Below are positions 34,560-46,373 of a stretch of DNA of 64,000 bases, piece by piece. The notes under the pieces were generated by a model that made no database searches, had not been told where the DNA came from, and was given only the letters and a program-made list of their open reading frames with translations. The position numbers were made by a program, and so were the translations under genes. Source of the stretch: Dehalococcoidia bacterium (GTDB taxonomy: Bacteria > Chloroflexota > Dehalococcoidia > GIF9 > AB-539-J10); contig JBATUN010000023.1 in the NCBI GenBank assembly GCA_049671165.1, positions 11,722 to 75,721 on the forward strand, read 5' to 3'. The first letter of the stretch is position 1; each line of letters begins with the position of its first letter.

Positions 34560-34650
<91 letters not shown>

Positions 34651-34651
34651 G

Positions 34652-34739
34652 CGGAGAGGGTGGGATTCGAACCCACGCTCCGATATAATCGGAGACCGCT
34701 TTTCGAGAGCGGCACCATAAACCACTCGGTCACCTCTCC
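34652..34739 (-). tRNA. tRNA-Ser (anticodon CGA), type II, directly abutting the previous tRNA
   Basis: Acceptor GGAGAGG/CCTCTCC, anticodon stem CCGCT/AGCGG with loop CTCGAAA, long variable arm and T-arm GTGGG-TTCGAAT-CCCAC. Confidence 0.85.
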
Positions 34740-40735: not shown

Positions 40736-42337
40736 CTAATAGTCAACAATCACTCCCCTCGCCTCAAGTTGTGGTATGTATATGCTGATGGAATCAGAGC
40801 TCAGCGGATTCTCCCGGAGGTAAACTTCATCCCCTTCTGAAAGCCCTTCATTATCCACCAGAGGTGAGATATCGCTTATCTGGTTATGGCCGAGGTGGAG
40901 GTCTTTTAAGTTGGTGAGGTTGGCCAGAGGCAAGATATCGCTTACCTGGTTAGACGCAAGCCAGAGGTCTGTTAGGTTAGTGAGGTGGGCCAGGGGCGAG
41001 ATATCACTCACCGAGTTACTGTACAGCATGAGCCGTCCGAGGCTGGTGAGGTTGGCCAGAGGCGAGATATCACTTATCTGGTTAGAGCCGAGGTGGAGGT
41101 CTGTCAGGTTGGTTAGGTTGGCCAGAGCGGAGATATCGGTTATCTGATTTTCCCAGAGGATTAGGTCTGTCAGGTTGGTTAGGTTGGCCAGAGGCGAGAT
41201 ATCGGTTATCTGGTTATCATAGAGGGAGAGGTCTGTCAGGTTGGTTAGGTTGGCCAGGGGCGAGACATTCTTTATCTGGTTAGACCCGAGGTAGACCTCT
41301 GTCAGGTCCGTGAGGTTGGCCAGAGTGGAGATATCGCTTATCGGGGTAGACGCAAGGTCGAGGAGTGTCAGGTTGGTTAGGTTGGCCAGGGGCGAGACAT
41401 TCTTTATCTGGTTAGAGCCGAGGTAGACCTCTGTCAGGTCTGTGAGCTTGGCCAGAGTGGAGATATCGCTTATCTGGTTAGACGCAAGTTGGAGGAGTGT
41501 CAGGTTGGTGAGGTTGGCCAGAGGCGAGACATCGCTTATCTGATTACCGTAGAGGTGGAGGAGTGTCAGGTTGGTGAGGGTAGCCAGGGGCGAGATATCG
41601 CTTATCTCGTTATAGTCAAGCCAGAGGTCTGTTAGGTTAGTGAGGTCGGCCAGGGGCGAGATGTTGCTTGTCTGGTTGTCCCGAAGGTCGAGCCACGTCA
41701 GGCCGGTGAGGCCCGCCAGAGCCGACACATCGCCTATCTGGTTACTCTCAAGGTCGAGTGAGGTCAGGCTGGTGAGGTCAGCCAGGGGCAAGATATCGCT
41801 TATCTGGTTAGAGTTCAGGCCGAGATATGTCAGGTTGGTGAGGCTGGCCAAAGGGGAGATATCGCTTATCTGGTTAGAGCCGAGGTAGAGGTCTGTCAGG
41901 TTGGTTAGGGTAGCCAGGGACGAGATATCGCTTATCTCGTTATCATAGAGGTAGAGGTCTGTCAGGTTGGTTAGGTTGGCCAAGGGCAAGACGTCGCTTA
42001 TTTGGTTCGCCGTGAGCCACAGGGTACTAAGATTGGTGAGGCTGGCCAGAGGCGAGGCATCGCTTATTTGGTTACCATTGAGATTGAGGTTCGCCAGGTT
42101 GGTGCAGTGATCGAGCCCGGTGACATCGGTGATATTCCTACCAGAAGCGCCAAGAGAGCTTAGTCCCTCCAGGTCCTCAGAATAGATGGGCCCCTCCGGT
42201 TTGCCGATGGCTTCTCTTACTGCTGTCTCAATGTTAGAATCGGCGAAGGTAATTATGTGCGGACGCAGCGCCACCACGAGTACGATGGCGACTGCAATGC
42301 ATGCTACAGCGATTCCTATCAGCTTGTTCCTGCTCAT
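40736..42337 (-). CDS. Leucine-rich-repeat (internalin-like) protein with an N-terminal signal anchor and about twenty 22-aa LRRs
   Basis: 'LTNLT.L.L..NQISDISPLA' repeated with a 66-nt period. N-terminal hydrophobic helix. Confidence 0.9.
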   Translation of the reverse strand: MSRNKLIGIAVACIAVAIVLVVALRPHIITFADSNIETAVREAIGKPEGPIYSEDLEGLSSLGASGRNITDVTGLDHCTNLANLNLNGNQISDASPLASLTNLSTLWLTANQISDVLPLANLTNLTDLYLYDNEISDISSLATLTNLTDLYLGSNQISDISPLASLTNLTYLGLNSNQISDILPLADLTSLTSLDLESNQIGDVSALAGLTGLTWLDLRDNQTSNISPLADLTNLTDLWLDYNEISDISPLATLTNLTLLHLYGNQISDVSPLANLTNLTLLQLASNQISDISTLAKLTDLTEVYLGSNQIKNVSPLANLTNLTLLDLASTPISDISTLANLTDLTEVYLGSNQIKNVSPLANLTNLTDLSLYDNQITDISPLANLTNLTDLILWENQITDISALANLTNLTDLHLGSNQISDISPLANLTSLGRLMLYSNSVSDISPLAHLTNLTDLWLASNQVSDILPLANLTNLKDLHLGHNQISDISPLVDNEGLSEGDEVYLRENPLSSDSISIYIPQLEARGVIVDY

Positions 42338-42808
42338 CCTATCCTCCTTTTGTAGACATGTGTGATATTCATACCATAAAGCATGCGACCAGAAGTGTCA
42401 ATAGGTTGTTCATTTGCTCGCAGAACAATCTGAGGGGCACGACGACCAGAATAACATGAGCAACGTAACACCTATACCTTCTAGCTTGAGGTTGTCCGCA
42501 GGTGTTGCGTAGAGACGTGAGTTAACGTTATTTTGTTGCGCCAAGGGGAACAAAACACCATTTTTTCCTGATGAGTTAACGGAACACTGCTTTGCTACCT
42601 CCAGGCGGATACCGGGATGTTTGCATTTTCTATTAGGCGAACATGACCACGGCACGAACATGGGGATGTCTAACTCTGAACTTTCAGTCATACCACAGGA
42701 AAAGAGACATTGTATACTGTGACCGGAAATTTTTCTTCCGGCGTAACTGTTTTTTATGTTAATATATTGATTGTAATCTAAATGCACCATTTGTAGAAAG
42801 GTCCTAAT

Positions 42809-44257
42809 GTGGCTATTCACTATTTAAAGCTGAGCCCTAAACGCCCACAATGGCTTGGAGGCGGTCAGTGGATTTTGTCAGACTTGACTGATGTAAATGT
42901 TATTTTTGGAAGGAACAGTTCTGGAAAAAGCCTTTTGCTTAGGGCTCTGTTTGATGAATTGAAAGGACAATCTCAGTATGTGTCTCCTGAGCGTGCTGGT
43001 GAGGTCAGCTACCAGCAAGCGATTGTAGAGGAAGAACTCCAAGAAGAAAGACGTGGCAGTCAACGGAAAGGAAAGAATCAAGCTGCGCGCTTTCGCCAAG
43101 AAAGTGTTTCCCGGCTAGGCTCATTAGAGATGAGAATCGGTGAATTAGCAGGAAAAGGGAGACCAGTACCTACAATGTTGCTCAAAATCGAGAGAGACCT
43201 TGCGGCTCTATTGCCTGACTTTAAGTTCTCAATAATTAATGAACCACCTCTCTTTAAACTTGAAAGGTATGACTACGAAAAGGACCAAATGACTTCTGTA
43301 AACCCTCAGCAGTTAAGCAGTGGTGAAACTGAGATGCTTACACTGGCTCTTGACTTGCTGACAATATGCAGTCTATGGGAACTTGAGGAAAGGCCTAAAC
43401 GAGTTCTTCTGATCGACGAACCCGATCCTCACTTACATCCGGACCTTCAGCTATCGTTGGCGGAGTTTCTTGTTCGACTTGGGCGTGAGTACAATACCCA
43501 AATCTTTGTTGCAACTCATAGCACTACACTCCTAGCAAGCTTGGGACAACAACGAGGGAGCGAAGTTGGAGTTATATATCTCAATAATGCACAGAACCAA
43601 CAAGAATTGATTAAATTCAACGAATATTACCAAAAGCTTAGTGTGTGTTTAGGTGGACATGCTTTAATGGGTCCCCTATTTAATGCGCCACTCCTTCTTG
43701 TTGAAGGAGACGATGATTATCAGATTTGGAGTCACCTACCACGTAATCCTAATTATGGACGTTCCTTGGCAGTAATTCCTTGCGGAGGTGAGAAGATAAT
43801 GCAGTACCAATCGACTCTCGAAGCTTTGTTTGGGAGTCTCCGAGGAACAAAAAGCGGTCCTCTTGGGTATGCACTCGTTGATGGGGACAAATCAGTACCG
43901 GGTAATGTCAGCCAGGAGCACATCAAGTTTTTGAAGCTTAAATGTCATGAAGCAGAAAACTTGTATCTGACCGATCAGGTGCTCAATAAACTGGGCTATA
44001 CTTGGCGGGAAGCCAGCAAGCAGATCATTGGAAAGGCAAATGAATATGGCGGCAAGGCCGAAGCATTAAATCAGTGTGAAAACTGGGACCGAAAAAAGGA
44101 AGATGTGAAAAACGTCATTATGCCTATTGCTCAAATTTTAGATCAGAAAGGCTTGCCGTGGACCATGCGCTTAGGGAAGTTACTTGGTGAGCGTAAGCCT
44201 AAAGCTCAATTGGCGGAATTTCTTGGCGAGGACGTTATCGAAGCGATTTGGGGATAG
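42809..44257 (+). CDS. OLD-family-like / PARIS-like ABC-type ATPase fused to a TOPRIM-like domain (candidate anti-phage nuclease)
   Basis: Walker A 'GRNSSGKS', Walker B / D-loop 'VLLIDEPDPHLHP' and C-terminal 'LLLVEGDDD' plus 'ALVDGDKS' (TOPRIM-like E and DxD). AT-rich gene. Confidence 0.7.
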   Translation: MAIHYLKLSPKRPQWLGGGQWILSDLTDVNVIFGRNSSGKSLLLRALFDELKGQSQYVSPERAGEVSYQQAIVEEELQEERRGSQRKGKNQAARFRQESVSRLGSLEMRIGELAGKGRPVPTMLLKIERDLAALLPDFKFSIINEPPLFKLERYDYEKDQMTSVNPQQLSSGETEMLTLALDLLTICSLWELEERPKRVLLIDEPDPHLHPDLQLSLAEFLVRLGREYNTQIFVATHSTTLLASLGQQRGSEVGVIYLNNAQNQQELIKFNEYYQKLSVCLGGHALMGPLFNAPLLLVEGDDDYQIWSHLPRNPNYGRSLAVIPCGGEKIMQYQSTLEALFGSLRGTKSGPLGYALVDGDKSVPGNVSQEHIKFLKLKCHEAENLYLTDQVLNKLGYTWREASKQIIGKANEYGGKAEALNQCENWDRKKEDVKNVIMPIAQILDQKGLPWTMRLGKLLGERKPKAQLAEFLGEDVIEAIWG

Positions 44258-44435
44258 ACTTCATCTTAAGATAATCTGTCGATGTTCCCTAACTGCTGTT
44301 CCTAAAAAGGGAGTAATAGTCTGCCCTTTCACGGTTATGAGGTTAATTAAGATTTATTACCAGTGCAGGAACATAGGGATGTTTGCCATTCCATGCGTAC
44401 GCTACCGCAGTGTCTTCATATGTGTTGTTTGAAAA

Positions 44436-45113
44436 TCAAGCGGGGAATCTGGCGATGAAGTCTCGTATTCCTTGCAGTGTTAATTCAACTTGGTCTTCAG
44501 TGTATTCAGTATATTTACCATGAGCTGCCTTGTTACGAAGGTCAAGCCAAGCAGTAATATTCTTCTGGTCTAGACGATTGTACACGTTGGAATTGGCGAG
44601 GTCTGCATTCATCGCATCTGCTTTTTTGAGACGGTCCTTTGTTTTGATATTGATTGAGTTTTTCAGGCAAAGTTTCCTGAGATGTTCTTCTAAAACACCG
44701 CCGATAATAACAGCAGCGGGGTCTTTATAGCCTTCTTTCAATAGATACTGCCCCATGTCAAGAAAATCGCTGAAGAGTTCGGCGTGTATCAGTTCCTCAA
44801 CTTCATATAGGTATCCAGATTCATATGCAGTTTTTAAGGCTTGGACGATACCGACCAAAACTGGAATGATAGCACGGTTAAGATGACCATAGTGATCTAG
44901 GGCGAGCTCCAAGCTTGTATAGTAGTATGTTCCGGTGGGTGCGAGACGTTGTATAGCTGCGACCAAAGATGTACGCACCTGGACTTGTATAGCTTTCGTG
45001 CCATCACCCAAATCGTCACCATAGTTTTTCCTAAGGTTTGCGTAACTACCCAATATTTGTTGAAGTTGGTCGCTAGGTGATGGTTTTGCAGTCATGTTAA
45101 GTGATTCTGCCAA
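44436..45113 (-). CDS. Hypothetical protein with a C-terminal HEPN-like Rx4H motif (DUF4145/Swt1-like)
   Basis: 'WLDLRNKAAHGKY' near the C-terminus of a predicted all-helical protein. Convergent with the ATPase gene. Confidence 0.45.
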   Translation of the reverse strand: MAESLNMTAKPSPSDQLQQILGSYANLRKNYGDDLGDGTKAIQVQVRTSLVAAIQRLAPTGTYYYTSLELALDHYGHLNRAIIPVLVGIVQALKTAYESGYLYEVEELIHAELFSDFLDMGQYLLKEGYKDPAAVIIGGVLEEHLRKLCLKNSINIKTKDRLKKADAMNADLANSNVYNRLDQKNITAWLDLRNKAAHGKYTEYTEDQVELTLQGIRDFIARFPA

Positions 45114-45578
45114 CGTTGGGCTTTTCAGGTGAGGAACTTCACATAATTAATTATAACATAACTTGAGAACAATAGATTGCGATAGATGGTAGAATGGCTC
45201 GACGTATGGAGAAAAACGGCGATTCAAGAGAAGCTGTAAAAGGTGTCAAGGATGTAGCGAATAATACATCATGGTTTGGAGAGACTGCTCACTACTGGGC
45301 AGAAGCATCGTTGCCTTTGGCTTATGCACTGGCGTGTGTTGAAGTTGTTTCTAGAAGCTCGGAGAAGGCTCGCATACTCTACAATAGGCTTATTGAAGCA
45401 TGGAGTGACATGGGGATGTCGACATGCACTTAAATGTGAGAGGGTTATTCTCTCATCTGCAATATATGTCACAGGATGAGTTAATGTAGAATTAGACAAG
45501 CAGAAGTCACGCCGTAGCTAGGTCCAGAATCTATTTCTTAAAGAAGCCTCATACGCCTTGAGAAGGGATATAGCATTA

Positions 45579-46373
45579 TCACCCACCACCTTGCCCCGGT
45601 CTTCGCATAGTTATTGTATCTGGCTTCCCTCCTATTTTCGCACGTTCAGCTTGCTTATAGGCATCTGGTTCTGTATGTTTGGTCATTACCCGGCGGTGAT
45701 ATGACCTAGAGAGGTAGAGAGCTAGTAACGGAGCGTGTCCGAATACCCTATCTTTGGCAGCAAGCACGGTGCAGGGCGCCCTACTGTTCTTAAGGAATAA
45801 CGAATCATGCCCTACGCAGAGGCACACCATAATATTGAGCTCTGTGTTGTAGCTGTTAAGGATTGCTGCCTGAGCTATGGGATGGCACATCGGCTCAAAC
45901 GTTCCAGGACTAATCTTTTCCCACTCCTCAAAGCCCAATTCCTCTTTGGGCACGGAGCCACATTTGCAGCAAACCGAGACAACTTCAAATCCTCTGTTCT
46001 CCAAGATAGGTACAAGTAGACTGACCTCATACTGAACACCTACACAATAAGCAACCCCCAGCCTCTTATAACGCATCCTTTCGGCAAACTCCATGATCTC
46101 CTCGACTCTGCTCTTTGAAGGTGAAATAACTTCGGGAGCATGGGGAAGCTTGATATAGCAAGATGCCTCTTGCTTAGAGGCGTTGTAGGCAAGCATGAGA
46201 TTTTCAGGGTCAATGCATTTCTGGGTGGCTTTCTTTATAACCTCTGTCCTTATCTTAGACGGACAGTTGTCTGGTCCCTTGTCCCATTCCGCAGTACTGC
46301 ATGCACGCCGTGCACATTTGGCACAATTCACCAATAGCTCTGCTCTTTGCTCTGTTTGTCTAGTCATAATCAC
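45579..46373 (-). CDS. Cys-rich putative metal-binding protein of unknown function
   Basis: 264-aa ORF with a CxxCxxxxC N-terminus and several CC/CxC clusters. No family recognised with confidence. Confidence 0.5.
   Translation of the reverse strand: MIMTRQTEQRAELLVNCAKCARRACSTAEWDKGPDNCPSKIRTEVIKKATQKCIDPENLMLAYNASKQEASCYIKLPHAPEVISPSKSRVEEIMEFAERMRYKRLGVAYCVGVQYEVSLLVPILENRGFEVVSVCCKCGSVPKEELGFEEWEKISPGTFEPMCHPIAQAAILNSYNTELNIMVCLCVGHDSLFLKNSRAPCTVLAAKDRVFGHAPLLALYLSRSYHRRVMTKHTEPDAYKQAERAKIGGKPDTITMRRPGQGGG

Follow-up and report, generated by a model that had tools for sequence, protein, structure and literature searches.

Two adjacent defence-type genes in a Dehalococcoidia genome are independent cargo modules, probably at the decayed end of a dnaN-associated integrative element

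We analysed a 64-kb stretch of a Dehalococcoidia bacterium contig (JBATUN010000023.1, positions 11,722 to 75,721; hereafter the window) that contains two convergent genes, described in an initial annotation of the sequence as a candidate anti-phage locus. Open reading frame (ORF) A (42809-44257, plus strand, GTG start) encodes a single polypeptide of 482 amino acids (aa), an ATP-binding cassette (ABC) ATPase-TOPRIM protein according to Pfam, PADLOC, hhalign and its structural model. ORF B (44436-45113, minus strand, TTG start) encodes a HEPN-type protein of 225 aa, recognised by Pfam, an invariant motif and Foldseek. The gap between the two genes measures 178 nucleotides (nt). ORF A is preceded by 471 nt without a credible ORF (42338-42808), as the initial annotation had reported (about 470 nt); the right-hand 190 nt of this stretch (42620-42808) belong to the ATPase cassette, being part of a block that is 91% identical in a related contig. 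The whole region (42338-45433) has a GC content of 43.6%, compared with a mean of 49.4% for the window (standard deviation 2.45% for segments of 3.1 kb). No other 3.1-kb segment of the window has a lower GC content, and the 0.6% of segments that are as poor in GC all overlap it. The AT-richness noted at first sight is therefore real, but moderate.

The ATPase domain of ORF A spans about residues 1-280. Its N-terminal 250 residues match the Pfam families AAA_21 (69.3 bits, cut-off 27) and AAA_15 (54.2 bits, cut-off 32.1), and G34, G39-K40-S41, S170-x-G172-E173, D203-E204 and H237 are invariant in an alignment with relatives sharing 45-92% identity. Walker A (nt 42908-42931), the signature motif, Walker B (D203-E204, nt 43415-43420) and the H-loop, which together characterise the OLD-family ATPase, are all present. 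After a linker (residues 283-291) that is flexible in the AlphaFold model, residues 292-395 (nt 43682-43993) correspond to a predicted TOPRIM domain, and residues 399-482 form a C-terminal helical domain in the same model. The same relatives share an invariant acidic set in this part of the protein: E299 in the LLVEGDD motif (nt 43703-43705), D358-x-D360 (nt 43880-43888) and E381-x-E383-N-L (acidic residues at nt 43949-43957). In the model (predicted local distance difference test score, pLDDT, 86.5), residues 295-387 adopt a beta-alpha-beta topology in which strands 295-299, 321-325, 353-357 and 372-376 alternate with helices, E299 standing after strand 1 and the DxD motif after strand 3. By sequence and model, ORF A thus appears to have the glutamate, the DxD and the further acidic residues expected of an OLD-family TOPRIM domain. 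The strings quoted in the initial annotation are all found in the protein (GRNSSGKS at residues 34-41, LLIDEPDPHLHP at 200-211, LLLVEGDDD at 295-303 and ALVDGDKS at 355-362), and the invariance of the key positions, in ORF A as in ORF B, shows that the quoted motif residues are not there by chance.

In PADLOC, the best models for ORF A are AriA (E = 3e-21) and the merged AriAB model PDLC02981 (65.8 bits, E = 7.8e-19), the latter aligning residues 131-387 with model positions 273-522 of 694 only. On divergent relatives of ORF A, PDLC02981 scores 45-76 bits, the match running from the ATPase into the TOPRIM domain; the Old and GajA models match the ATPase part of ORF A only. When the C-terminal domain of 21 members was searched alone, AriB matched 12 members and AriAB 10, every other PADLOC model matched at most 3, and no Old or GajA model was matched. 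The same domain gave sub-threshold Pfam matches to OLD-like_TOPRIM (16 of the 21 members), DUF4435 (11) and DUF3226 (6); for ORF A itself, the DUF4435 and OLD-like_TOPRIM matches cover residues 291-395. With hhalign, the full-length ORF A profile was aligned to P2 Old (95.5%, E = 1.5e-8), residues 100-327 on Old 189-430, LLVEG falling on LLVEG; the C-terminal domain alone gave no significant alignment to P2 Old (probability 1.5%). Foldseek matched the ORF A model to retron PtuA, Eco8 OLD, TsOLD and GajA. A search of BFVD added little: its matches were 'ATP-dependent endonuclease' proteins of giant viruses and the heads of SMC/Rad50. From Pfam, PADLOC, hhalign, Foldseek and the invariant residues taken together, ORF A is an OLD-family member in the broad sense, as the initial annotation had proposed in naming an ABC ATPase and TOPRIM of the OLD/PARIS kind. 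It belongs to a compact and divergent clade of this family, whose nearest relative among the defence models is merged PARIS AriAB.

Merged AriAB genes, which fall in class 4 of the OLD family, have been described (PMC9122126, PMC11464382). Like them, ORF A joins an AAA_15/AAA_21 ABC ATPase and a TOPRIM domain in one polypeptide and is a stand-alone accessory gene. The active-site segments of AriB (19-43, 80-87 and 109-115; PMC12409363) also fit the spacing of the acidic residues in ORF A (E299, then +59 and +82-84). However, ORF A has 482 aa, whereas the merged model has 694 positions: its residues 113-237 align to AriA 316-428, and the approximately 200 residues of insertions and coiled coil by which AriA assembles into a hexamer and senses its trigger are missing. 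With the class 1 OLD proteins (P2 Old, Thermus scotoductus OLD or TsOLD, and Vibrio cholerae class 1 OLD), ORF A shares the single gene encoding an ABC ATPase followed by a TOPRIM domain, the latter also without a helical insert (PMC10568477). With P2 Old, hhalign gives a collinear alignment that runs along the ATPase C-lobe and as far as TOPRIM strands 1-2, and the Foldseek alignment with TsOLD (6p74) extends over 459 columns. ORF A nevertheless differs from class 1 proteins in being 40-100 residues shorter, with what seems a far smaller ATPase dimerisation insert (helices 95-115 and 123-134 in the model) and a Walker B located about 77 residues earlier than that of TsOLD (residues 193-236 align to 270-313). 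A conserved C-terminal helical domain of its own and the linker motif CLGGHALMGPLF set it further apart.

Proteins of the ORF A family have a uniform length of 470-500 aa and form 578 clusters at 90% identity among the candidates scored (E <= 1e-5), with at least 422 confirmed matches in species-representative genomes. The matches listed come from Patescibacteria, Planctomycetota, Pseudomonadota, Chloroflexota, Bacteroidota and two archaeal lineages, Nitrosopumilales among them. No recurrent neighbour was found in 80 loci from species-representative genomes, the commonest neighbours being a tyrosine integrase (7 loci), a large serine recombinase (6 loci) and UvrA (6 loci). As in class 1 OLD, the gene thus stands alone, without a conserved partner such as a GajB helicase, a retron reverse transcriptase or a separate AriB. 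A homologue with the same architecture is found in Escherichia coli (WP_085458947.1, 489 aa, 28% identity, annotated 'AAA family ATPase'). The gene occupies a small accessory islet flanked by yfgI and guaA, adjoining a transposase fragment (NZ_CP062824.1, 4404241-4405710; locus L209, 7057-8526), and is a solitary accessory gene present in 28 of 5426 complete genomes (0.5%). No phage genome was matched by ORF A in a tblastn search, and IMG/VR contained only distant relatives of the ATPase (at most 29% identity) and four relatives of the HEPN protein. Neither gene is therefore typically carried by phages.

ORF B consists of an N-terminal four-helix domain (residues 13-99 of the model) and a C-terminal HEPN domain (about residues 101-225). 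Its best Pfam match is HEPN_RiboL-PSP (PF18735; residues 151-223, 26.7 bits, E = 6e-6), and some of its relatives carry PF18735 in their precomputed annotation, including P0121, a hypothetical protein from a Dehalococcoidia metagenome-assembled genome that is 100% identical to ORF B. R193, N194 and H198 of the segment R193-N-K-A-A-H198 (nt 44520-44537) are invariant among 25 sequences (relatives with 49-78% identity) and match the Rx4-6H motif of HEPN domains (PMC3710099); the helix motif E142-x-H144-L-R146 is invariant as well. The string LRNKAAHGKY, with which the protein had been said to end, is present at residues 192-201, but a further 24 residues separate it from the C-terminus. The model (pLDDT 90.5) is all-alpha. 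In the PDB, Foldseek ranks the HEPN protein 2hsb first (probability 1.00, target TM-score 0.74, root-mean-square deviation 3.1 Å over 116 columns), ahead of the HEPN toxins from MNT-HEPN pairs and of a Csm6. HEPN proteins account for 20 of the 50 top matches, with weak E-values (best 0.06). The HEPN assignment of the initial annotation is thus supported by the Pfam match, the invariant residues and the predicted fold. More generally, the profile searches and structure predictions that it had proposed as checks were run for both proteins and support the TOPRIM arrangement of ORF A and the HEPN fold of ORF B. An annexin match to the N-terminal helices (HEPN profile against PDB sequences, E = 4e-4, two weak stretches) was regarded as compositional, since the fold search gives it no support.

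Among known families, ORF B comes closest to RiboL-PSP-HEPN (PF18735; Anantharaman et al. 2013), related to the AbiD/AbiF HEPN proteins, with which it shares a C-terminal HEPN domain bearing RNxxxH. It differs in having its own N-terminal four-helix domain and in lacking both the L-PSP fusion and the ParB neighbour of that family (PMC3710099). The ORF B family is large (more than 3700 clusters at 90% identity, about 220 aa), and no recurrent partner was found in 91 of its loci. No ORF for an MNT nucleotidyltransferase adjoins ORF B, which sets it apart from the HEPN-MNT pairs. In one distant HEPN-family locus (L090 5352-6663, L091 59-1086), a TumE-like gene and an HVO_A0114-family gene precede the HEPN gene on the same strand with 15-nt spacing. 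This arrangement was seen in no other HEPN locus and may be a lineage-specific operon.

The initial annotation presented the two genes as a pairing of an OLD-like nuclease with a HEPN protein, and named their never occurring together elsewhere as evidence that would count against it. We searched the 80 ATPase loci, with flanks of 8 kb on either side, using the HEPN-family profile, and 91 HEPN-family loci using the ATPase profile. No HEPN-family gene was found in the 80 ATPase loci, and no ATPase-family gene in the 91 HEPN loci, 48 of which have at least 2 kb of sequence on one or both sides. The picture is the same for the closest relatives: the nearest ATPase (P0001, 92% identity) is followed by a cupin gene and has no HEPN gene, while the nearest HEPN proteins (P0122, 78%; P0127, 71%; P0128, 72%) have no such ATPase nearby. 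At the nucleotide level, the region is composed of two blocks of homology. Positions 42620-44382 of the window are 91% identical to the P0001 contig (L083) and positions 44359-45407 are 81% identical to the P0122 contig (L085). The first block ends at 44382 and the second begins at 44359, so that they meet between ORF A and ORF B, at a 25-nt repeat resembling an attachment (att) site. The two genes are therefore independent cargo modules that happen to be adjacent, and not an OLD-HEPN system.

The repeat common to both blocks lies at 44359-44383 on the minus strand, where it matches the search pattern exactly and translates as NIPMFLHW followed by two stops. A degenerate copy (DIPMFVPW, no stop) lies at 42646-42670, at the left boundary of the ATPase cassette and also on the minus strand, so that ORF A is bracketed by direct repeats. 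Two matches were found in the window with the pattern, compared with 0 expected by chance. The motif, AACATCCCnATGTTyGTnCAnTGGT(AA), corresponds to the last 7-8 codons of dnaN (IPMFVQW and stop); nine copies of the repeat were aligned. Generic repeat finding gave no island boundaries, which appeared only by comparison with related loci. There, copies are found at 3803-3827 in L083, 6760-6784 in L085, 2827-2851 and 9095-9119 in L087, 2621-2645, 5366-5390 and 6089-6113 in L093, 2878-2902, 6640-6664 and 7626-7650 in L094, and 1913-1937 and 3134-3158 in L096. The true end of dnaN in four related loci reads DNYVHV(V/I)MPMFVQW and stop, and the extra copies read IPMFVQW and stop. Integron attC, a dif-like site and the end of a transfer-messenger RNA were considered for the repeat and dropped, since its translation is the DnaN C-terminus.

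In related Dehalococcoidia, these tandem direct pseudo-copies bound an element with a serine recombinase and its cargo. First in the layout is dnaN, the end of which is copy 1, followed by a large serine recombinase gene that is convergent with dnaN and overlaps its end by 26 nt. Then come several ORFs without assignment, genes for proteins of 385 aa and 310 aa, the HEPN gene, a slot of variable content and copy 2. This slot is empty in L085, L089 and L094. In L087 (6803-8671), a CAP12/Pycsar-type TIR protein is encoded there together with a 276-aa partner of no assigned function and a 95-aa ORF, and in L093 (3730-5114) an HNH endonuclease and an AbiGi-family protein. In the window, it is occupied by the ATPase cassette, after which comes the further, degenerate repeat copy. 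Beyond ORF B, a 79-aa ORF (45194-45433, plus strand) was identified by tblastn and neighbour clustering as the truncated N-terminus of the approximately 310-aa gene: residues 1-73 of the L085 protein match positions 45206-45424 with 59% identity. In the ten closest HEPN loci, this gene, the product of which has no Pfam match, is found upstream of the HEPN gene in divergent orientation; the other 81 loci of the family lack it. As neither dnaN nor a serine recombinase gene is present in the 64-kb window and the 310-aa gene is truncated, we consider the region to be what remains of the cargo end of an integrative element targeting dnaN, which accounts for both its low GC content and the adjacency of the two genes. 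The horizontal acquisition put forward by the initial annotation is borne out by the homology blocks, the dnaN-end repeats, the serine-recombinase element of the relatives and the low GC content.

The repeats and their arrangement suggest that elements integrate site-specifically at the dnaN 3' end and that cassettes accrete there. Tentatively, the dnaN-end pseudo-copies could themselves be recombination sites between which single defence genes move as cassettes, the large serine recombinase of a dnaN-targeting element acting in trans. Defence cassettes would then accumulate and be exchanged in Dehalococcoidia in an integron-like manner. This proposition draws on the ATPase gene being bracketed by two direct copies both in the window and in L083, in different genomic contexts, and on the equivalent slot of the relatives holding TIR, HNH and AbiGi genes, or nothing.

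Site-specific genomic islands of Dehalococcoides, reportedly described by McMurdie et al. in 2011, use a serine recombinase to enter the 3' end of ssrA and leave tandem direct repeats behind. The elements studied here resemble them in the large serine recombinase beside the target gene, in the direct repeat of the target 3' end at the far boundary and in the several tandem copies with cargo between them. They differ in that the target is dnaN and the cargo consists of defence-type genes rather than reductive dehalogenases, while the window retains only a relic without recombinase or dnaN.

Altogether, the region is probably the decayed right-hand end of a Dehalococcoidia integrative element that inserts into the dnaN 3' end, with two independent single-gene modules of defence type. 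The domain identities, the conserved catalytic residues, the lack of a conserved partner, the mobile context and the att-like repeats are observed at this locus and its relatives. We infer by analogy the nuclease activities, substrates and triggers of both genes, and we infer their defence role from the patchy distribution, the accessory status, the mobile neighbours and the company found in the slot. Several points weigh against this interpretation. The DUF4435 (PF14491) match of ORF A reaches 15.4-17.6 bits and that of distant relatives 18-21 bits (best E among close relatives 9e-6), below the cut-off of 27 bits, the threshold that defines AriB (PMC9122126); ORF A thus departs from PARIS in this respect. 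It departs likewise from class 1 OLD in its OLD-like_TOPRIM (PF20469) match of 12.9-14.7 bits for a cut-off of 23.2 (best E 0.0016 among the 16 of 21 members that match). The C-terminal-domain profile found no solved TOPRIM nuclease among PDB sequences, AriB included; the CCDC22 and CheW matches that it did return are chance matches (E > 0.1). The helical insertion through which AriA, TsOLD and GajA assemble is for the most part missing from ORF A, whose oligomeric state and sensing may consequently differ from theirs. For ORF B, the HEPN_RiboL-PSP score is 1.7 bits under the gathering cut-off of 28.4. Some OLD-family proteins, such as Cran1, do not function in defence (PMC12796447). Finally, the lack of dnaN and of the serine recombinase in the window leaves unexplained how the relic arrived here.

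Under this interpretation, the ABC ATPase head of ORF A would dimerise, bind ATP and serve as a sensor or switch. A phage-derived cue would then cause the ATPase to license a two-metal TOPRIM nuclease (E299, D358xD360 and E381xE383) to cleave nucleic acid. Its target might be tRNA, by analogy with AriB (PMC11464382, PMC12409363) and P2 Old (PMC12445682), or DNA, by analogy with TsOLD and GajA (PMC10568477). Infection would be arrested without the need for a partner gene. Like characterised relatives (PMC3710099), ORF B may dimerise so that two RNxxxH motifs form a metal-independent RNase site, with the N-terminal four-helix domain as a putative regulator or sensor.

ORF B might instead be the toxin of a toxin-antitoxin pair whose partner, either the truncated 310-aa neighbour or a small ORF, has been lost or goes unrecognised, in which case it would be a gene in decay and not one active in defence. 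Many HEPN proteins are such toxins, as in HEPN-MNT (PMC7641770), the divergent 310-aa gene accompanies the ten closest HEPN loci and is cut down to 79 aa in the window, and HEPN homologues on Acinetobacter plasmids adjoin small ORFs of no assigned function. We nevertheless consider this unlikely: the 310-aa gene does not occur in the remaining HEPN-family loci, neither an MNT nor any other partner recurs among the 91, and ORF B, beside its truncated neighbour, retains its full length and all the invariant residues, which argues that it tolerates the loss of that gene.

An OLD enzyme of housekeeping or DNA metabolism, on the model of the Cran1 cell-cycle nickase or of a repair nuclease, is still less probable for ORF A. 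At least 11 clades of the OLD family are uncharacterised and non-defence members exist (PMC12796447), and UvrA adjoins the ORF A family in 6 of the 80 loci. On the other hand, the family is scattered across phyla and domains, from Patescibacteria, Planctomycetota, Pseudomonadota and Chloroflexota to Nitrosopumilales, it is accessory in E. coli, and it has integrases and recombinases as frequent neighbours but no conserved operon partner. Here, moreover, the gene sits between att-like repeats, in a slot that elsewhere carries TIR and AbiGi genes. Very improbable, lastly, is a two-component system in which the ATPase-TOPRIM protein senses infection and acts with, or regulates, the HEPN RNase: the genes are neighbours in one AT-rich island, both are of kinds frequent in defence systems and HEPN-ABC ATPase fusions such as PrrC/RloC exist (PMC3710099), but the co-occurrence test contradicts such a pair, neither gene is found beside the nearest relatives of the other, unrelated cargo fills the equivalent slot, the att-like repeat separates the genes where homology breaks, and their convergent orientation excludes an operon.

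Outside the two genes, scans for promoters and terminators gave nothing above chance level, and no credible Rfam family was found at 42300-45700. To the left, a gene at 40736-42337 (minus strand) encodes a 533-aa protein made nearly entirely of 22-residue leucine-rich repeats after a hydrophobic N-terminal segment. Its DNA comprises 17 copies with a period of 66 nt and has a GC content of 53%, and the GC skew climbs sharply across it. Two tRNA-Ser genes (anticodons GGA and CGA; 34560-34739, minus strand) follow each other without a spacer about 8 kb from the island and were not connected with it here. To the right, directly past the 79-aa remnant, a gene at 45579-46373 (minus strand) encodes a 264-aa DUF1847 protein (185.7 bits); this is the point where homology to the mobile element stops and the apparent core genome resumes.

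The adjacency of ORF A and ORF B should therefore not be counted as a new OLD-HEPN system. Both proteins are uncharacterised members of already known kinds. ORF A represents a widespread compact clade devoid of the large AriA/OLD assembly insert, which could show what the family minimally needs for a sensor-nuclease, and the E. coli homologue offers a convenient experimental entry to this clade. ORF B belongs to a large family of solitary proteins with neither a characterised member nor a recurrent partner. The dnaN-end repeats, for their part, point to a Dehalococcoidia integrative element whose distal slot gathers defence genes, and this slot may be a useful place to seek further cargo.

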